The position numbers were made by a program, and so were the translations under genes. From positions 1-20,688 of the forward strand of contig JBBSQY010000053.1 of NCBI GenBank assembly GCA_038243585.1: a stretch of 20,688 bases of DNA, in the 5' to 3' direction. Position 1 is the first letter of the stretch. Each line of letters starts with the position of its first letter. The notes beneath the pieces were generated by a model. The model did no database searches. It saw only the letters and a program-made list of their open reading frames with translations, and was not told the origin of the DNA. This DNA is from Candidatus Sumerlaeales bacterium. GTDB lineage: Bacteria; Sumerlaeota; Sumerlaeia; Sumerlaeales; Sumerlaeaceae. Below are positions 4,853 through 19,796 of the stretch, piece after piece.

Positions 4853-4937
4853 AATTTTTCGGTTCTTAACAATGATTGGCACCATCCAGCGTCCAATGTT
4901 ATAAACTTGTCAGAGATTTATGGAGAGGGCCCTAAAC

Positions 4938-6671
4938 GTGTTTCAAAAACTTGCCACTATCGCGCTACTGCTATGTGCTTCCGCCGGCTTTGCCGAGGTC
5001 GTCACCATTGAGAGCTTTGAAAACGACGGGGATCCTGCCAACTGGCAGGTAAACGTTACGGCTGGCCACACGCTAAACGCCACTGTCACAGGCCCTGTGC
5101 CGGAGTTTGTAACAACAGATGTGACAGAGGGAATTCTGGCGGGCAAATTCCTTGCCACCTGGAACCAGACAACCAGCCCGACAGCCGAAAATGTGTATGA
5201 TGTGGATGGACCTTCAGTCTACTGGGCGGTGCGCTATAATGTCAATGCGCCCGCTTCGCTCCCCAATAACTCCATTGCGACCGCTGATGGACTTTTGCAG
5301 GCGGATATAACAAATCTTTCTTCCGCCCCCGTCTGGGTCGCGTTAGCGGTAGATAGTGTTGTCAGTTCACAGCTTGAACGTGGCCCGCTGCACCTGATCG
5401 ACGCTGGATCATCAGCCACTTATGTCTGGGATTTCGCGACAACGCCGCCGGTTGGTTTTGACACGGGTGATGGTGTATTCAGTGGCGATGTCCAGCGGCT
5501 GAAGTCGCTGCTTGTCTACACGCCGGTCCAACCGACAGATTCGACGCTGGCGCTTACGGTGGATAATATCCGCAACGGCAACAGCCCTCCAATTCCGACC
5601 GTCGATCCTCCGAAAATTCTTTCTCTTACTCAGGGCGTCAGCCCTGGCGAAGCTGTATTAACATGGGCTGCTGAGTCTGACCCCAATGTCGCTGCTTATA
5701 GTATTTTTGTCGCCACGGACGTAAACTTCGGAACTCCGGAAATTAACCGTCTCACATTTCCACAAAATCCTGTTACCACGGTGCCTGCGGCGCAGCGTTC
5801 TGTAGTATTGTCAGGTTTGCCTACCGATCGAAGTGTCTATGTTAAAGTCGGCGACAGCTCCTCGTTTAAGGACGAAGGAGAGGACGTGTTTAATCCAGTA
5901 TTTACCGCGTTTCTAAATGCCGATGGAGCGCCTCCTCAGGATCGAATTGTCATTGATCACAACCTGCTGGCCTATGACGATCTAAATTTTGTTAAATACG
6001 GGTATGCCCATGCAGCTGTATATACAGCACAGGCGCTGGCCGGTTTAGACCGGACGTTCGACTCTGTTTCTGCGGAAGCGGTTGATACCGGTGTCGCTTC
6101 ATTAACTCCCGCCCCGGACGGAATTGTTATCTGGAGCAATCTAAAAGATGGCGAAATCGCCGGCACTTCTCTTTCCTCACCATCCCGATTGGCGATTTCC
6201 AACTTTCTTGCTAATGACGGAAAACTTATAATCTCAGGGTCGGCGTTAGCTCAGGATTTAGGAGCATCCCCTGGAGTCCTTGAAGCGCTGTTCCAGGCGT
6301 CGCTCCAGACCGGCAACATAGGCGTATCAGTTATCAAGCCGATCGCTCCGCTGACTACCGCCCCGTTGTCTACGGGCCTCAACCCGGCAACAAACGCCGT
6401 TGCCTATTTCAGCAGCGACAATGACGGCATCTTGCCCGCCGGCGGCAGCGCTTCCCTTGCAACTTACAATAATATACCAGCAGTAAATTCTGTCGCGGCC
6501 GTCGGGAAGGAAAACTCCTTTGTATTTCTAGGGTTTGCTTTCGAAACCGTTGGCAACTCCTCCGGGCCTTCTGCCAGTGCGCTGGCCCGCGAGAATTTGA
6601 TGAACGACATGGTAAATTATCTTAACGGAATCGGCGAAACGGACGCAAAAGACTGGCAGCTGTTCAACTAA
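4938..6671 (+). CDS. Secreted/surface protein: beta-rich N-domain, FN3-like middle, alpha/beta C-domain, terminal DWQLF motif
   Basis: Signal peptide (FQKLATIALLLCASAGFA|EVV). GTG 4938 follows GGAGAGG (alternative ATG at 4920). Pro-rich linker SPPIPTVDPP; FN3-like AVLTW...Y.I...LSGLP...VYVKV; C-terminus ETDAKDWQLFN. Confidence 0.7.
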   Translation: MFQKLATIALLLCASAGFAEVVTIESFENDGDPANWQVNVTAGHTLNATVTGPVPEFVTTDVTEGILAGKFLATWNQTTSPTAENVYDVDGPSVYWAVRYNVNAPASLPNNSIATADGLLQADITNLSSAPVWVALAVDSVVSSQLERGPLHLIDAGSSATYVWDFATTPPVGFDTGDGVFSGDVQRLKSLLVYTPVQPTDSTLALTVDNIRNGNSPPIPTVDPPKILSLTQGVSPGEAVLTWAAESDPNVAAYSIFVATDVNFGTPEINRLTFPQNPVTTVPAAQRSVVLSGLPTDRSVYVKVGDSSSFKDEGEDVFNPVFTAFLNADGAPPQDRIVIDHNLLAYDDLNFVKYGYAHAAVYTAQALAGLDRTFDSVSAEAVDTGVASLTPAPDGIVIWSNLKDGEIAGTSLSSPSRLAISNFLANDGKLIISGSALAQDLGASPGVLEALFQASLQTGNIGVSVIKPIAPLTTAPLSTGLNPATNAVAYFSSDNDGILPAGGSASLATYNNIPAVNSVAAVGKENSFVFLGFAFETVGNSSGPSASALARENLMNDMVNYLNGIGETDAKDWQLFN

Positions 6672-6716
6672 CAGAAACTCTTGCCATTCCCATGTTCCGG
6701 TGGGAAATCAGGGGTC

Positions 6717-8168
6717 ATGCAGACTGATAAATTAACCCTTGTTGTTATCTTTCAGGACGATGACTACTCGTCCTGCGTCCGGTACATTTTTGATTTGTTT
6801 AGTCGCGTACATGGCTATGCTTGCCATTTTGTTGCGGATAATCAGGATAGGATGGCAACGGCGGATGTCGTCATCAAGTATGGCGAGATGACGCCTTTTA
6901 GCGACTCAGGCTCTGACACTCCTACCATAAACGTTCATCGCTGCCGGTTTTTTAGCGATGAGTTTGGCAAGTCCAACAAGCCGCCGGAAAACTTCAGTCT
7001 CCTTTTGACAGCCTCAAAAGCAACCGCATTTATGACGATGGCCCAACGAACCGCTACTAGCGCCACTATTGTGCACGATGTTATTGCTGCCGCGTTTTAC
7101 CTGCTCAGTGGTTACCACGACTGGACCACACAGTTGCGGGATCCGGCAGGGCGTGTCCTTTCAAGCCAGATCGCTCTGCCTGTCGAGACTTGGGACATGC
7201 CTCACGTAAACCACTGGTTTCGACAGCTTGATGAGCTCGTTCGTTCGTTACATCGGCGTGAGACAGAGACCACACAGCCCGCTATGACGCCCGCTGGCCT
7301 TCAGACGATATGCCTTACCCATGACGTAGATCTTCTGCGCAAATACCGTCCCGGCAACCTTGGACGCCACCTGACGCGGACGGCCAAAGCCAATCCCGCG
7401 CAAATGCTTAGTGAAACACGGCGAGCCGCACGGGTCTTGTCTGGCCGAGAGCGTGACCCATACGACAGCATCGATAGCCTGTATACAGTAAAAGAGCGCA
7501 TTTCCGCTCCCTCAACATTTTTCTTTCTTGGCAGCAAACCAGGTGGCCACAATGGGGACTACCAGGCAGGCGGTCGCGAGGCCCGAAATCTCATGACCCG
7601 GGCCCGAGGCTTCGGAGATGAACTGGCGTTCCACGGCAGCTGGGAATCGTCCGATTCCGCTGAGCTCACGCGCGATGAAAAAGAAAAGGTTCAGCAGGCC
7701 GTGCAAACTCCAATCCAAGGGGCTCGTCAGCATTATCTGCGTTTTGAAACCCCTGACACTTGGAAACACCTTGCCTCTGCTGGTATCCGATATGACTCTT
7801 CGGGCGGTTTTCCCGATCGCTGCGGGTTTAAATACGGGTGGTCCGGTTGCTTTTACCCGTTTGATCTGGACGCCATGCACCCGCTGCCGATCCTTGAAAT
7901 TCCGCTCGTATGCATGGACATAACCTTGTCATCGTATGAAAAAATTCCGGCTGAACTCGCGCTGGAAAGGCTTTCTACCCTCCTCGACAGTGCATGTGAC
8001 GGAGTGCCAGGCGGCGCTTTTGTGTTCCTCTGGCATAACGTAATGGGCGACCGAGTCGCCTATCCCGGCTATTTTGACACTTTCGAATACTTCTTTTCTG
8101 TGGCATCCGGCAGCGCTCGCTATATCACCATGGCGCAGCTTTGCGATGAGTTTGAGTCTCCTCGTTGA
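6717..8168 (+). CDS. Polysaccharide deacetylase family protein (CE4-like/NodB fold) with N-terminal extension
   Basis: CLTHDVD, STFFFL, ELAFHGS, GARQHYLRF, GIRYDSS.GF, LEIPLVCMD and FLWHN motifs. Alternative TTG start at 6681. Confidence 0.85.
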   Translation: MQTDKLTLVVIFQDDDYSSCVRYIFDLFSRVHGYACHFVADNQDRMATADVVIKYGEMTPFSDSGSDTPTINVHRCRFFSDEFGKSNKPPENFSLLLTASKATAFMTMAQRTATSATIVHDVIAAAFYLLSGYHDWTTQLRDPAGRVLSSQIALPVETWDMPHVNHWFRQLDELVRSLHRRETETTQPAMTPAGLQTICLTHDVDLLRKYRPGNLGRHLTRTAKANPAQMLSETRRAARVLSGRERDPYDSIDSLYTVKERISAPSTFFFLGSKPGGHNGDYQAGGREARNLMTRARGFGDELAFHGSWESSDSAELTRDEKEKVQQAVQTPIQGARQHYLRFETPDTWKHLASAGIRYDSSGGFPDRCGFKYGWSGCFYPFDLDAMHPLPILEIPLVCMDITLSSYEKIPAELALERLSTLLDSACDGVPGGAFVFLWHNVMGDRVAYPGYFDTFEYFFSVASGSARYITMAQLCDEFESPR

Positions 8169-9736
8169 TTCACGACCGGGATTTCAGCAGTCCGGCTATA
8201 TCTCGCGTCGAAAAGCTCACTCTGCTCTTACTTGCGTTGCTTTATGCCGTGCCTGTTATTGTCTGCTGGAACAGTGGATATCTGGATTTTGGCGACGGCA
8301 ACTATATGTATATTTCCTGGCGGCTTAGCCAAGGCGCTGTCCTGTACCGCGACATCCTGGCCCCTCAGCCTCCGCTGCATCTCTACATCGGCGCCGGGTT
8401 GGCGTGGTTGGGAGAGCGATTACTCCCCCACCCATTGTGGGCTTTCCGCGGCTTCAGCCTGGCGTTGCACCTGGCGACGATGGTGTTGGTGTGGATGACA
8501 GCACGGGTCGTTCACAGCAAAAATGGCAGTACCGCCCATCCAGTTATTCCACTGGCAGCCGCCGCCATTTATCTCCTGCTGCCTATTGGCTTCTGGTGGA
8601 CACTGGGATATCAGTCACAACCGCTGCTGATATTTCTCCTTCTGATCATGTTTTATGGGGTAGTTCGCAATACAGGTAAACTGACAGGAGTCGCCGCAGC
8701 AGCGGCAGGCCTTGCGCTGCTGACCAACATGACCACCGCCCCCTACGTGCTTTTCACCGGAGGTTGGCTGCTCCTTCGACATTTCCGCCACGGGCTATTG
8801 TTCTGCCTGCTTACCGCTCTGCCGTCCCTCATTGTCATTCCGACCATGGAGGCCTATACCGGGGCCTATATCAGCAACGTTTTTGAAAATCAGGCAGGAG
8901 CCTTTCCCCGGCCGGATGTCCTTGCTCAATCCGGCCAAACGGTGTCCGGTTACGTCATGGGAAAAATTATCACGGAGGGCGGAGACGTGCTTCGCCTGGA
9001 GGGATCTTGGGTCGCCCTTGCCGCTTTAGGAATGCTGATTTACGGGGCACGACGCAGGCAGATTGCCACAGAGTACGTGCTATTTTTTTCGTTTTTCAGC
9101 CTTTGCTCAATCCTGTACGTCGCCAAAGGCGGCACGGTAGACTATGTGTTCTCCCTCGCAGAGCCCTATGTAGCCATTTTTGCAGCGACATCCGTGGTTG
9201 CTGCCGGCTCGTATTTCTGTCGAATGTGGCGCGAGAGTCCGAGCTGGAAAAATCTTACCCCCCTGGCCGCGCCCTTTATAGGTTTAGTGCTACTTCTGGC
9301 AGTCGCATGGCCAGGCATCCACTTTTCTTACCTGACCCTGAACCAGCAAACTTATGAACTTACGGAACCAGAGACCATGCGTCTCGTATCATGGATAAGA
9401 CAACGAACCAAACCCGATGACCTAATTATTGCCCCACCCCATCTGGCTTTTATGGCACGTCGGCATATCGTTGAGGATTACAGCGAACACTTTCTGTGGC
9501 GTCTGAAATACATGAACGAACGGCTGGACGGAGAGGAAGGTCGCGCCGTAAAAACCATTCAGGCTATGGCCGCGCAGCTAAACCAGAAAAACCTGCCATT
9601 CCTGGTGCTCGATATGAACCAGACAGGCATCCTGCCGGAAATCATTCAAGCCGTCGAGGCAAATTACCGACCCCTGCTCGACGAACCGCTGCGGACACTT
9701 AACACCCCGCTCCAACTCTATGAGCCGAAGCGATGA
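8165..9736 (+). CDS. Polytopic membrane protein, probable GT-C fold glycosyltransferase (ArnT/PMT-like)
   Basis: The first TM helix is followed by DFGDGNYMY...G.VLYRDI..PQPPL, a typical GT-C first-loop pattern. About 10 or more hydrophobic segments and a soluble C-terminal domain. The TTG start overlaps the upstream TGA (TTGA 8165-8168). Confidence 0.7.
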   Translation: MIHDRDFSSPAISRVEKLTLLLLALLYAVPVIVCWNSGYLDFGDGNYMYISWRLSQGAVLYRDILAPQPPLHLYIGAGLAWLGERLLPHPLWAFRGFSLALHLATMVLVWMTARVVHSKNGSTAHPVIPLAAAAIYLLLPIGFWWTLGYQSQPLLIFLLLIMFYGVVRNTGKLTGVAAAAAGLALLTNMTTAPYVLFTGGWLLLRHFRHGLLFCLLTALPSLIVIPTMEAYTGAYISNVFENQAGAFPRPDVLAQSGQTVSGYVMGKIITEGGDVLRLEGSWVALAALGMLIYGARRRQIATEYVLFFSFFSLCSILYVAKGGTVDYVFSLAEPYVAIFAATSVVAAGSYFCRMWRESPSWKNLTPLAAPFIGLVLLLAVAWPGIHFSYLTLNQQTYELTEPETMRLVSWIRQRTKPDDLIIAPPHLAFMARRHIVEDYSEHFLWRLKYMNERLDGEEGRAVKTIQAMAAQLNQKNLPFLVLDMNQTGILPEIIQAVEANYRPLLDEPLRTLNTPLQLYEPKR

Positions 9737-9776
9737 ATAGCATTCAAGAAGAGTATTTAATGTAAAATCTTAATTC

Positions 9777-10973
9777 ATGACCAATACGAAAAGCCCACTT
9801 GTAAACAGTTTGAGAGGCGCAACTTTGGATGAAATCTTAAATAGCGCGCGCCAAATTGCGAAAGATATTCTAACCGTTGACGCAGAACAAGTTGACACGG
9901 ACGCCCGCTGGCCGGAACGTGGCATCCGAGCATTGCAGCAGGCGGGGTTAGGCGGTCTAGTCGTATCTGAGGAGTTTGGGGGCCTGGGACAAGGGGCCCT
10001 GGCATTGGTTCGTGTAGCAGAGATTCTCGGAACCGAGTGTACGTCGACTGGATTATGCTACGGAATGCATTGCGTTGGAGCAGCGGTTATCGGGGCGAAA
10101 GCCACTCCGGATCAAGGCGAGCGTTATCTGAGACCGATTGCTCAAGGTCACCACTTAACGACCATAGGCCTGAGCGAGCCAGGAACTGGAGCTCATTTTT
10201 ACCTTTCGGAAACTAAGCTGAAAGCTGTTGACGGCGATAGCTATCAGATTTCCGGCACCAAAAGTTTCGTGACTAATGGCGCCCACGCCGATTCGTATGT
10301 CATCTCGACCGTTGCAGCCGATCCCGGCGCTCCCCCCGGTCAATTTTCGTGCGTGCTAGTCAATGAAGGAACTCCCGGTCTCGACTGGCAGTTGCCGTGG
10401 GACGGAATGGGCATGCGTGGTAATTCTTCCTGCTCTCTTAAATTGAATGAAGTTAAGATTTCCAAACGTGACCTTATTGGCGACGAAGGGGATCAAATCT
10501 GGTACATTTTTCAAGTGGTTGCTCCATATTTTCTCACCGCGATGGCTGGCACCTATCTGGGTCTGGCCTCAACTGCACTTAGAATTGCGCAGGATCACTT
10601 GACCAGCAGGACCTATTCGACATCCGGGGTTTCTCTTGCTCAAGTTCCAGTTCTCCAGCACCGTATCGGGGTCATGTGGGGCATGCTTGAGCGGACACGC
10701 CAACTGGTTTATTTCGCCGCCAGCCAGGTTGACCAGGGCGGTCCTGACGCCCTGCCTGCACTCTGTTCCGCCAAGGCTGAAGTAGCCGACTGCGCCGTTA
10801 ACCTTGTCAACGAAGCGATGACACTACTGGGCGGAATCGGATATCAACGCGGAGGCAGAATGGAGCGACTGATGCGTGATGCTCGTGCGGCGCATATTAT
10901 GGCTCCTACAACCGATGTACTCCGGACGTGGGTCGGCCGGTCAATACTTGGCCAGCCGCTGCTCGCGGATTAA
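9777..10973 (+). CDS. Acyl-CoA dehydrogenase-fold flavoprotein (catalytic Glu apparently absent)
   Basis: GLGGL.VSEEFGGLG, GLSEPGTG, ISGTKSFVTNG, WDGMGMRG, AK..VA, LLGGIGY and ERLMRDAR motifs. Confidence 0.92.
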   Translation: MTNTKSPLVNSLRGATLDEILNSARQIAKDILTVDAEQVDTDARWPERGIRALQQAGLGGLVVSEEFGGLGQGALALVRVAEILGTECTSTGLCYGMHCVGAAVIGAKATPDQGERYLRPIAQGHHLTTIGLSEPGTGAHFYLSETKLKAVDGDSYQISGTKSFVTNGAHADSYVISTVAADPGAPPGQFSCVLVNEGTPGLDWQLPWDGMGMRGNSSCSLKLNEVKISKRDLIGDEGDQIWYIFQVVAPYFLTAMAGTYLGLASTALRIAQDHLTSRTYSTSGVSLAQVPVLQHRIGVMWGMLERTRQLVYFAASQVDQGGPDALPALCSAKAEVADCAVNLVNEAMTLLGGIGYQRGGRMERLMRDARAAHIMAPTTDVLRTWVGRSILGQPLLAD

Positions 10974-10976
10974 CCA

Positions 10977-13421
10977 TTGAACAAGGTCTTACTGTACAAG
11001 GTCGATCCTATAACCTCTGACTTACTTCGTAGTTCTAACGACAAATTGGCTGAGTTTCAGCCAGTAGCAAGTCCAGACGAAGTGGCAACGATAGTAGCAG
11101 ACCAATCCCATGTGGTGGACGCGCTGGTCATCGGCACCTTCGTTGCGGATCCGGTCCGAGTGGCTCAGCAAACTTACGCGGTCAGCCGAGATGTAGGCGT
11201 AATGTTGCTGACAGAGACAATCCATTTAGATCAACTGACCAGGGCAGTTCAGTTTTCTCCGCTCCTTGGAAACGGTACCGTGTGTGTAGCCGTGGAGGAC
11301 ACAGCAAAAGTGCTGGAAGCATTTTATCAGACTCTTACGGCGGTGCGACGTCGACGTACACATCGAGCAACTATCGCTGCGGTCGACACGCAGATTCAGT
11401 CACAACTGCCTCCTATTCTGCATGGAACCTACGTTGAGCATCTGCTACACCACGCGCCCATAGGGGTGGTGGCAACAGATGAATTTGGAAAAGCCCTGGC
11501 GTGGAACACATTTGCAACAACGCTCACTGGCATTGTCGAGCGTGACGCATTAGGTGCTAGATTTCCCAGCCTTTATCCGGAGCCCTGGAGATCTCAGCTC
11601 GAGGCATTGATTACCAACGTCTCGACCAGCCCGCTTGACGGCTGGCCACCTCTTATAGTGGAAAACGCCACTATGGCCGTAGAAATGAAGATATCGCTGC
11701 TTGAGGGAGCTAAAGACAACCATCGTTTAATAATCCTCATGCGAGATATCACTATTCAACTGCGGGCAGAGCGCGAAGCCGCTGAGGCCACGCGTTTGTT
11801 AAAAAGCACCAACGAGGAACTGAGGAAAGCTCGTGATCGAGCCTTTGATGCAAGCCGCGCCAAAAGTACTTTTCTAGCCAATATGAGTCACGAACTTCGT
11901 ACTCCATTAAACGCGATTATCGGCTATGCTGAGATGCTGCAGGAGCAGGCACAGGATGGTTTACATGATGACCTTCCGGCTGACCTTCGTCGGATAAGCT
12001 CTGCGGGACGTCACCTTCTAATGCTGATCGGTGAAATTCTTGACATATCAAAAATCGAAGCTGGAAAGATGGAACTTTATATCAGCCGCTTCGACTTAGG
12101 GACATTAGTGGATGAAGTCACCGCGACAGTTCAGCCGCTGATTGAAAAGAACAGGAACCGGTTAATGACCACCTGCGATCAAGACCTTGGCCTGATGCAA
12201 ACGGATGAAACTAAGGTTCGCCAGATACTTTTCAACCTGCTCAGTAACGCTGCAAAGTTTACTGAAAACGGTACAATTAAGTTGTCTGTCGACCGGGAGA
12301 CAACCGATCAAAACAATCCAATCGATCGCGGCGACAAAGTGGATACAATAGTTATACAGGTATCTGATAGCGGCATTGGAATGTCTGAACAGCAAATTGA
12401 ATCGCTTTTCCGTGAGTTCAGCCAGGTCGACCCGTCATCAACGCGTCGCCACGGCGGAACAGGGCTTGGGCTGGCAATAAGCAGACGATTCAGCCAAATG
12501 ATGGGAGGGGACGTTAACGTCACCAGCACCCCTGGAACTGGCTCTATTTTCACAGCAAAGCTACCTATGATGGTTCCGGGTACTACGGATATTCCGTCTG
12601 AAAATATTGGTTTACTTGAAGCCGGCTTCAGTCGGGAGGTGGGATCGTCTTCTTATTCTCCAAATACCATTCTTGTCATTGACGATGACCCAACCGTGCA
12701 CCAACTGATGCGCCCCCTGTTGGAGAAAGAAAGATTTCATGTCGTTAGCGCCATGGATGGCAGACGCGGAATTGAACTCGCCAGGGAGATACATCCTCGT
12801 GCCATTATTTTAGACATTTTAATGCCAGAATTAGACGGTCGGTCAGTTCTGACTGAAATTAAAGCCGACCAAAAGCTTGCTGATATTCCTGTTATAATTG
12901 TCAGCCTTGTTGACCACAAAAACCTTGGCTTTGCTCTCGGGGCAACCGATTACCTGACTAAGCCATTTGAGCGCGAACGCTTGCTTTCCATATTACGCAG
13001 GTATCAATGCGACCTGCACACCTGCAGGGTTCTGCTTCTTGAGGATGATCTCGATACAAGGGATCTGCTGAACCGGCTGCTTATAGCTGCCGGATGCTCA
13101 ACGGTTACCGCCACTAACGGCCGGGAGGGACTTAGAGCTATGGAAGCCAGTATACCTGATATAATCCTTCTCGACCTTATGATGCCCGAAATGGACGGCT
13201 TCGAGTTTTTGGAAAGGGTACGTCAGGAGCCACTGTGGCGAAACACCCCGATAATCGTAATCACTGCCATGGAACTTAACGACGACGACCGCCATAACTT
13301 AAACGGAGAGGTTCAGCGAGTTCTTTATAAGGGCCACTACACTCGCGATGATCTTTTGCAGGAAATCTGCGACACGGTGGCGAGTCTCCCTCGCTTGCCG
13401 GAAAACGTTGAACACTCATAG
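10977..13421 (+). CDS. Cytoplasmic hybrid sensor histidine kinase: pseudo-receiver-like domain, PAS, HisKA, HATPase and two REC domains
   Basis: PAS ([13 protein letters not shown]...WN...RDIT). H-box [20 protein letters not shown]-box [11 protein letters not shown]1 DSGIG, G2 GGTGLGL. REC1 VIDDD/LDILMP/TKP and REC2 LLEDD/LDLMMP. No TM helix. TTG start 3 nt after the upstream stop. Confidence 0.95.
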
Positions 13422-13536: not shown

Positions 13537-13623
13537 GCCGGGATGGTGAAATTGGTAGACGCAAGGGACTTAAAATCCCTCGACCGTAAGGTCGTCCGGG
13601 TTCGATTCCCGGTCCCGGCACCA
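13537..13623 (+). tRNA. tRNA-Leu (anticodon TAA)
   Basis: Acceptor GCCGGGA/TCCCGGC plus ACCA. Anticodon arm AGGGA-CTTAAAA-TCCCT (TAA at 13571-13573). Long variable arm GACC-GTAA-GGTC. T-loop GGTTCGATTCC. Confidence 0.97.

Positions 13624-19720: not shown

Positions 19721-19796
<76 letters not shown>

Follow-up and report, generated by a model that had tools for sequence, protein, structure and literature searches.

In the window, the whole stretch of 20,688 nucleotides that was analysed, two genes lie 3 nt apart on the plus strand. The first (9777-10973, start codon ATG, 398 aa) encodes a flavoprotein of the acyl-CoA dehydrogenase (ACAD) fold that was assigned to a kinase-linked subfamily by Pfam (PF02771/02770/00441), a structure model and a subfamily profile. 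The second (10977-13421, start codon TTG, 814 aa) encodes a soluble hybrid histidine kinase composed of a pseudo-receiver, a helix, a PAS domain, HisKA, HATPase and two receivers. An AT-rich gap of 40 nt (9737-9776, no strand; 9 G+C) separates the ACAD gene from an upstream glycosyltransferase-like gene and is a possible promoter or ribosome-binding region. No sigma-70 consensus was found in the gap, and a promoter and terminator scan gave fewer sites than shuffled sequences. On the other side, a tRNA-Leu(TAA) was detected with ARAGORN at 13537-13623 of the plus strand, 115 nt past the kinase stop. It is a flank of the variable region and lies outside the module; in a genome of the same genus (G061) a 91% tRNA match follows the same dnaE-like gene and the module is absent. 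The gene spacing, the AT-rich gap and the flanking tRNA had been described in an earlier note on this DNA and were all borne out.

The model of the ACAD (pLDDT 89.8) shows the three-domain ACAD fold and superimposes on known ACADs with a TM score of about 0.88 at 24-30% identity. The protein scored 632 bits on the subfamily profile versus at most 223 bits for other ACADs of the host phylum. The subfamily is very conserved (mean column identity 65%), and its carriers belong to at least six named phyla and to the host phylum of the source genome. In the sources its members are called only ACAD-family or AidB-like. In a tree made by a quick method, the window ACAD had no starred clade and was not assignable to the sulfur clades. 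The best-scoring NCBIfam model was NF049984 (Rv1679/FadE16), and membership was rejected at 255.7 bits against a cut-off of 600. DszC (64.7 bits, cut-off 850) and SfnB (96.9 bits, cut-off 430.9) were rejected likewise. The structural matches also include 8phe, which we take to be the ACAD9-ECSIT entry. The source genome (G000, 89.7% complete) encodes a single ACAD, and a search for ETF across all of it gave no match, which carries the absence claimed by the earlier note beyond the window. Hydratase, thiolase and CoA-ligase genes, also claimed to be missing, had no match among the ORFs scanned with Pfam.

The residues of the ACAD were followed in an alignment of 106 rows. T166, R278, Q294, G352 and G353 are invariant and T378 is found in 102 rows; we take these to be FAD-contact positions, equivalent to T168, R281, Q292, G353 and T378 of MCAD. 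The catalytic Glu at the position of MCAD Glu376 is absent in all rows (Ser in 58, Ala in 46, Gly in 1 and Thr in 1), and M375-A376-P377-T378 (10899-10910, plus strand) stands in place of the Y-E-G-T catalytic loop of solved ACADs. At the position of IVD Glu254 in helix G every row has Phe (residue 252). The roles of the catalytic and the ETF-docking Glu residues were taken from PMC10925408. The docking positions were mapped via alignments to BCD and IVD and not via MCAD: that of MCAD Glu212 is Trp208 in 106 of 106 rows, and at the alternative site twelve residues on (LCAD Glu260; position 220) Glu is absent among the eight commonest residues, which account for 102 rows. The helix lining the substrate pocket carries the motif C94-x-G-M97-H98-C99-V100 (10056-10076, plus strand), with M97, H98 and V100 in all rows, C94 in 97 and C99 in 91. 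At the Asp/Arg positions that we assume from MCAD to bind CoA, Pro and Leu are invariant, and Met and Phe occupy the positions of the acyl pocket. Acyl-CoA sensing, one of the possibilities raised by the earlier note, therefore looks unlikely and was rejected as the main reading. The protein is predicted to bind FAD and not to be an acyl-CoA dehydrogenase.

Residues 1-142 of the kinase (10977-11402, plus strand) gave no match in a Pfam scan and adopt a (beta/alpha)5 receiver fold in the structure model, with a long helix at the end. They had not been recognised as a pseudo-receiver in the first reading. The domain aligned to the receiver 3kcn over 133 residues (VIA-align Z 15.2, rmsd 2.9). The phospho-acceptor position is Gly53; across the 106 rows it is Gly in 89 and Asp in 3, and Gly occupies it in 87% of 150 library matches. 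The acidic pair that follows beta1 in receivers (positions 7-10) and the Lys that follows beta5 (103-106) are not conserved in the 106 rows, and a phosphorylatable N-terminal receiver was rejected. The conserved motifs are P59-x-x-x-A63-Q64 and F93-x-P95-x-x-G98. Since the profile comparison with the kinase's own receiver gave a probability of only 0.7%, the relationship to receivers rests on the fold. An Atlas search returned unnamed or putative response-regulator clusters (0.90-0.92), which serve as a lead only. Clustered at 50% identity, the pseudo-receiver family counts no fewer than 455 clusters (E <=1e-10).

In the model of residues 1-264, the receiver fold is followed by the long helix and the PAS domain, and no membrane or periplasmic part is present, in agreement with the earlier description of a kinase without such a sensor. 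The PAS domain (about aa 153-260; 11433-11756, plus strand) was matched by Pfam from 153 to at least 213 (PF00989, E 1.4e-5) and by Foldseek to FixL and other PAS domains. It is poorly conserved among the partner proteins, and in L023, one of the partners, another segment occupies the usual place of the first PAS. The kinase core (11859-12569, plus strand) consists of HisKA (aa 295-363) with His305 at 11889-11891 and HATPase_c (aa 409-531). Two canonical receivers with an acceptor Asp follow at 12669-13376 of the plus strand (PF00072 in two stretches, best aa 565-673; the end of the second is approximate). With these parts the protein is a hybrid histidine kinase.

The earlier note had proposed to ask whether homologues of the ACAD regularly precede signalling genes sharing one N-terminal domain. 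For kinases and cyclases this was confirmed with close homologues. The next gene downstream of the ACAD encodes a pseudo-receiver in 51 of 55 genome loci. With a profile from which those loci had been left out, the same holds for 73 of 80 metagenome loci, where the 7 misses are contig edges with at most 215 nt remaining. None of 19 ordinary ACAD controls has one, so the linkage is far beyond chance. Conversely, a search starting from the domain found the ACAD upstream in 10 of 11 and 3 of 4 matches (13 of 15, 4 of these 13 loci being already known), and each of five genomes tested contained one strong domain match. The exceptions are a strong domain match whose upstream gene is not the ACAD (L168), an additional ACAD copy that lacks a partner downstream, in a genome where the paired copy is 38 kb away (L197), and a truncated ACAD that stands alone (L051). 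A fused ACAD-kinase protein was not found at E 1e-60 among 7,999 longer-protein candidates, in what was a weak search.

An ordinary acyl-CoA dehydrogenase that came to lie beside the kinase by chance on a transferred fragment would fit the impression of a recent gain: within its phylum the subfamily is present only in the source genome, 1 of 75, and a tRNA adjoins. By tetranucleotide distance the module ranks at the 76th percentile of its genome, and a search for a tRNA-end repeat found none, so a recent transfer has no compositional proof. This explanation is hardly credible, as the linkage spans six named phyla with non-homologous outputs, the controls lack it, and the missing catalytic and ETF residues and the lack of an ETF match speak against an ordinary enzyme. 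The ACAD/kinase pair is a real, conserved module.

The outputs attached to the pseudo-receiver are diverse. The 41 partner proteins comprise 37 kinases (11 hybrid), 3 GGDEF proteins and 1 incomplete protein, and HisKA_3, HWE, SpoIIE and STAS outputs occur among 24 selected domain-bearing proteins. Phosphatases sharing the N-terminal domain, which the earlier note had also asked about, thus exist (PP2C type, SpoIIE), as do STAS proteins, but both came from a protein search without genomic context. A FixJ-like regulator is added at 42 loci. Enzyme-regulator cassettes are common, and together with this regulator their commonness would suit a metabolic ACAD that is controlled by the kinase, or merely co-expressed with it, in an autoregulated cassette. 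We consider such a reversed or loose direction improbable: the same input domain heads GGDEF, STAS and SpoIIE proteins, which have no transcriptional output of their own, and the domain is rarely found without the ACAD.

These comparisons establish the obligate gene pairing, the dedicated domain, the swapped outputs, the residue losses and the folds. The most probable reading, which we favour at somewhat better than even, is that the two genes form an input module in which the flavoprotein, as co-sensor, acts on the pseudo-receiver. This protein of the ACAD fold would bind FAD without dehydrogenating acyl-CoA or passing electrons to ETF, and would serve as a soluble co-sensor for the N-terminal pseudo-receiver of the next gene's product. 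A small ligand bound next to the flavin in the plugged pocket, or a redox change of the flavin, could alter the contact between the two, and the long helix would relay the change via the PAS domain to the fused output, here the hybrid kinase. FAD occupancy, physical contact and the direction of signalling are what we infer. The first reading of the flavoprotein as the signal input to the kinase is partly supported.

The contact was approached in two ways. Mutual information over 106 paired rows gave a top z of 6.98 versus 6.1-6.9 in permuted pairings, which is no signal; the pairwise identities correlate at 0.86, which is due to co-inheritance and does not argue for contact. For a complex predicted from two ACAD copies, FAD and the pseudo-receiver, with the PAS left out, the scores were 0.08 and 0.29 where 0.32 was the mark to reach, and the prediction, made without folded controls, counts neither for nor against contact. 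In RNA runs X1-X4 at L183, contigs of up to 150 kb spanned the whole stretch, too long to read co-transcription.

The ACAD could instead be an active enzyme of another chemistry, such as a flavin oxygenase, an oxidase or a C-S cleaving enzyme, and form a small product that the PAS domain or the pseudo-receiver binds as a ligand, with or without contact. The loss of the Glu is no proof of a dead enzyme, since the ACAD-fold proteins Dms1-3 oxidise DMS without a Glu base; according to PMC13352529, the substrates of such Group D flavin monooxygenases are small organosulfur compounds, DMS and DMSO among them, and Dms1 and Dms3, which it lists as DszC- and SfnC-like, use free FMNH2 supplied by MsuE. 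The invariant pocket residues M97, H98, M375 and P377 are shared with sister ACAD families (L172, L173) that sit in metabolic clusters, one with radical-SAM/SBP genes and one with sfnG/ssuD, and the top structural matches include the 3-sulfinopropionyl-CoA desulfinase 5af7 (Z 46.0, rmsd 2.2, 375 aligned). We nevertheless regard an active enzyme as rather unlikely. Dehydrogenases (Z 47.7) come nearer to the model than TdsC (Z 40.1) or DnmZ (Z 40.6) do, and neither a flavin reductase nor a pathway gene is found repeatedly across the clades. A diffusible product would not require a dedicated receiver-fold domain, yet this domain is retained in every type of output, unlike the PAS, which shows little conservation and has been replaced in one case. 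An NAD(P)H oxidoreductase-like ORF was seen near the module at L194.

For a co-sensor, a small reduced-sulfur compound (DMS, methanethiol or sulfane sulfur) is a serious candidate signal at a little under an even chance, O2 or the cell redox state is nearly as likely, and something else is less likely. Of 50 hosts, 19 combine the module with an AlkB-like oxygenase, which is DMS-induced in Methylophaga; these 19 are all Pseudomonadota, and 18 of them also have a methanethiol oxidase-family gene. The remaining 31, including the source genome, have neither an AlkB-like orthologue nor a strong methanethiol oxidase match, which makes a universal DMS signal less likely. Outside the sulfur clades the neighbouring genes differ widely, so the ACAD is not accompanied by a common pathway, and the quick-method tree did not support the independence of the two sulfur-linked clades from each other. 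It is rather unlikely that the ACAD has been repurposed as a flavoprotein receptor, with dimethylsulfide or methanethiol as its ligand, that in Thiobacillus, Methylophaga, Methylotenera and Hyphomicrobium would turn on, via the kinase and the FixJ-like regulator, an AlkB/XylM-type oxygenase carrying out the first step of DMS breakdown, and that in Bacteroidota, Acidobacteriota and others, including the source organism, would serve other outputs. If so, DMS sensing would extend far past DMS degraders. The first step in Methylophaga thiooxydans is described in PMC6548844 as still to be identified, and in H. denitrificans the cluster Hden_0719-0748, with a putative DMS monooxygenase, belongs to neither the sHdrR nor the SoxR regulon (PMC12423496). 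For these genes the module is a candidate regulator, with working genetics in at least one of the organisms, and it makes the first step a testable question.

No description of an ACAD-kinase module was found among the open-access papers listed by the literature searches. The ACAD resembles acyl-CoA dehydrogenases (SCAD/BCD, MCAD, IVD, IBD) in fold and FAD-contact residues and differs from them in lacking Glu at both catalytic positions, in the Pro/Leu and Trp replacements and in the lack of a host ETF match. It shares the MH and M-x-P motifs with L172, a relative from the Rv1679/FadE16 side, but the genes after L172 encode an Rv1680-like binding protein and a radical SAM protein and not a pseudo-receiver protein. 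With the Group D monooxygenases (Dms1-3, DszC, SfnB/MsuC) it has in common an ACAD fold without the Glu base. A non-enzymatic partner role of an ACAD is known from ACAD9 of ACAD9-ECSIT, a mitochondrial assembly factor. In the RpfF-RpfC system of Xanthomonas, a fold of fatty-acid metabolism is likewise coupled to a receiver, as the crotonase RpfF binds the C-terminal, phosphorylatable receiver of the hybrid kinase. The closest parallel, already drawn in the earlier note, is RsbQ-RsbP, for which PMC3183031 describes a bipartite module with one input coupled via a coiled coil to a kinase, a PPM phosphatase or a diguanylate cyclase, contact being proposed as the signal. This logic fits, with the gene of an enzyme-fold protein next to a signalling gene and diverse outputs fused to one input. 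The parts do not: the partner is an ACAD-fold flavoprotein and not an alpha/beta hydrolase, the constant piece is the pseudo-receiver ahead of the PAS and not the PAS itself, which differs in L023, and STAS and HWE outputs are found too. By analogy, the module can be regarded as like the RsbQ-PAS module but made of new parts, a portable bacterial input module that joins a flavoprotein of the ACAD fold to an unannotated family of pseudo-receivers, neither of them known in such a role.

The window holds two adjacent open reading frames on the + strand. The first (9777-10973) encodes a 398-aa protein with all three ACAD domains of Pfam, and the second (10977-13421), which begins with TTG, encodes an 814-aa hybrid kinase with PAS, HisKA, HATPase and two receiver domains. 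They are separated by 3 nt, with a 40-nt AT-rich gap 5' of the ACAD gene and a tRNA-Leu gene 3' of the kinase gene. The ORF and tRNA calls thus bear out the pair, the spacing and both flanks as described in the earlier note. The N-terminal 140 residues or so of the kinase had no Pfam match. In the whole source genome (89.7% complete), this ACAD is the sole one and no ETF was found. Upstream in the window are a protein of 583 aa (4920-6671), which has an apparent signal peptide but matches no Pfam family significantly, and a DUF7033 protein with a membrane glycosyltransferase-like gene (6681-9736). The latter gene is present in 5/5 family relatives searched, each time with a similar-sized ORF upstream. 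A tRNA-Glu(TTC) lies at 19721-19796.

A structure predicted for residues 1-264 of the kinase (pLDDT 89.8) showed five strands and five helices followed by the PAS domain, and the last of these helices extends as a 34-residue helix. The N-terminal domain superimposes on receiver domains (Z 15.2, rmsd 2.9, 133 residues). Over 106 aligned ACAD/partner pairs, the phospho-acceptor position is Gly in 89 and Asp in 3, and no conserved equivalents of the acidic pair and the Lys of receivers were found; we call the domain a pseudo-receiver. Its conserved residues are P59, A63-Q64, F93-x-P95, G98 and a basic pair at 126-127.

Linkage of the two genes was tested with a GTDB genome scan, which gave 55 ACAD loci (54 at 43-62% identity) from Pseudomonadota, Bacteroidota, Acidobacteriota, Myxococcota, Deinococcota and Fibrobacterota. 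A pseudo-receiver profile matched the gene immediately 3' of the ACAD in 51 of them, a count that is partly circular because the profile was made from 40 of these loci and the window. Where a start could be assigned, the intergenic gaps were -4 to +42 nt. The four misses are L050 and L053, where the contig ends inside the ACAD gene, L051 with a truncated ACAD and L055 with a distant one (25%). For an independent test, the best 80 of 324 metagenome matches were used. The pseudo-receiver was downstream in 73 (4 of them weak, 16-20 bits), and at most 215 nt of contig remained after the ACAD in the other 7, whereas with ordinary ACADs of the host phylum it was found within about 1.5 kb in 0/19 control loci. 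A plasmid locus (L171, 50% identity) likewise has it. The ACAD homologues are therefore consistently linked to partners sharing this domain, which the earlier note had proposed to check.

In the reverse direction, the profile was searched against 401 whole genomes of one Bacteroidota order and 401 of Acidobacteriota. The former gave 11 matches in 10 genomes, with an ACAD of the kinase-linked subfamily directly upstream in 10 (one broken), and the eleventh was weak and partial (32 bits). In the latter, 3 of 4 matches had the ACAD upstream (one frameshifted). Of the 13 positive loci, 4 were already in the forward set. The fourth Acidobacteriota match is a true exception, L168:581-2293, a pseudo-receiver protein with a different upstream gene. 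Genome G1321 has a second ACAD copy without a partner in a sulfur island (L197:9672-10838), with the paired copy 38 kb off. In a Bacteroidota clade (L024, L041, L054, L118, L128, L133), the ACAD gene is immediately preceded by one or two response regulators of a single domain, in some cases together with additional kinases. Throughout the Thiobacillus/Hyphomicrobium clade, two small genes occupy this place (L179:12718-13308; 28 loci). One encodes a Nif11-like protein of 92 aa (Pfam E 7e-4, below cut-off), the other a protein of 99 aa without a family; both are possible accessory parts.

Within the host phylum, the subfamily was found in 1/75 genomes, the source genome only (632 bits vs at most 223 elsewhere). 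The distance between the flanking glycosyltransferase-like and dnaE-like genes is 1.2-1.4 kb in two genomes of the same family and 4.5 kb here. The cassette was probably acquired laterally; the sequence composition of the module speaks neither for nor against this.

A library search with the pseudo-receiver gave 762 clusters at E 0.001 and 455 at 1e-10, and the match started at or before residue 55 in 150/150 among the matches listed. The outputs of 41 partners were 37 kinases (11 hybrid), 3 GGDEF proteins and one cut short. HisKA_3, HWE, SpoIIE and STAS outputs, known from proteins alone, occurred among 24 library proteins chosen as atypical or long. P0092, P0139 and P0116, which begin with the domain, are RsbR-like STAS proteins and a SpoIIE phosphatase that also carries an ATPase domain of anti-sigma type; they hint at a role in partner-switching stress pathways. 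The partner kinase L023:7137-9569 has, behind the pseudo-receiver, a segment that fails to align with the usual PAS, which leaves the pseudo-receiver as the constant part.

The ACAD model is closest to dehydrogenases (TM about 0.88, Z 47.7). T166, R278, Q294, G352 and G353, which we take to contact FAD, are invariant over the 106 rows, and Met97, Phe252 and Met375, presumably lining the acyl pocket, are also invariant. An Asp/Arg pair that we assume to hold CoA is replaced by Pro250/Leu253. The ETF-docking Glu position is an invariant Trp208, and the alternative docking Glu, twelve residues on, was absent among the commonest residues (102 of 106 rows). Over the 106 rows, the position of MCAD Glu376 is Ser or Ala almost throughout and never Glu, and that of IVD Glu254 is an invariant Phe; the roles of these glutamates follow PMC10925408. 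We favour, with some reserve, a flavoprotein that would act on the pseudo-receiver as a putative co-sensor, the long helix relaying the change to the PAS domain and then to the output; the main rival explanation, an active enzyme that produces a ligand, is less likely. Rv1679/FadE16 was the top NCBIfam model, yet membership was rejected at a score of 255.7 against a cut-off of 600. Two sister ACAD subfamilies share the MH and M-x-P motifs, lack the catalytic Glu and have no pseudo-receiver. One (L172, 4998-8998) adjoins an Rv1680-like binding protein and a radical SAM gene; the other (L173, 363-8038) neighbours sfnG, ssuD and a gene for OmpW, a protein that is likewise encoded upstream of the module at 14 loci of Thiobacillus type.

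In two Pseudomonadota clades, the gene after the kinase usually encodes a FixJ-like regulator. The regulator-kinase-ACAD triple has three further genes nearby, for a diiron membrane protein (annotated as a desaturase), a truncated globin and a 2Fe-2S/FAD/NAD reductase. The similarity of the diiron protein to AlkB alkane monooxygenases (E 4e-28) includes the histidine boxes. These three genes (L175:170-3847, contig G880:C25; orthologues in L002, L007, L016, L022 and L194) make up a conserved cluster in the vicinity of methanethiol oxidase. The cluster is a candidate methyl-hydroxylating DMS monooxygenase that, we assume, resembles XylM/XylA. Fifty module-bearing genomes were surveyed, from 49 of the GTDB-scan loci plus the source genome. 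An AlkB-like orthologue (at least 50% identity) was found in 19, and 18 of these had a strong SBP56/methanethiol oxidase match. The remaining 31, the source genome included, had neither, with two distant AlkB-like matches and one weak SBP56 match set aside. The SBP56 gene is 6-28 kb from the module in 4/5 genomes checked, one of the four (G883) scoring below the MtoX cut-off. In the Methylophaga family, the ACAD occurs in 12/83 genomes, all within the 14 that have the oxygenase, and in the Thiobacillus family both occur together in the identical 11/121 genomes; such kin are not independent, and a single island may be the cause.

In M. thiooxydans, the expression values on DMS and on methanol are 1359 v 10 (desaturase), 618 v 12 (oxidoreductase) and 601 v 21 (globin) in Table S6 of PMC6548844. 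Strand and tag range match these genes to the AlkB-like cluster, and MDMS009_167 (Table S9) is the orthologue of the kinase. In that paper, the desaturase is read as lipid repair and the first DMS step is given as not known, with a monooxygenase possible. In H. denitrificans, Hden_0719-0748, including a putative DMS monooxygenase and MtoX, respond to thiosulfate and lie outside the sHdrR and SoxR regulons, according to PMC12423496. The order of Hden_0728-0735 in its supplement is that found beside regulator, kinase and ACAD in L194; by this synteny, Hden_0725-0727, absent from the supplement's list of changed genes, may therefore be the module. Against a DMS-only signal stand the hosts, most of which are without the pathway, the induction of the H. 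denitrificans cluster by thiosulfate too (PMC12423496), and the CysB-, Fur- and LysR-like ORFs, assigned by sequence, in these islands. A sensor of O2 would be just as fitting for an oxygenase-globin operon as one of DMS. DMS-oxidising enzymes of the ACAD fold do exist and are classed as DszC- and SfnC-like in PMC13352529.

Taken together, the sensing module is real and widespread and apparently undescribed; no description of an ACAD-kinase module was found in the open-access literature. RpfF-RpfC and ACAD9-ECSIT may be analogous systems. The RsbQ-PAS module (PMC3183031) likewise has an enzyme-fold partner, a dedicated input domain and interchangeable outputs. The analogy to RsbQ-RsbP drawn in the earlier note therefore holds for the working logic but not for membership, because the enzyme-fold partner and the input domain both differ from those of the ACAD/pseudo-receiver pair.
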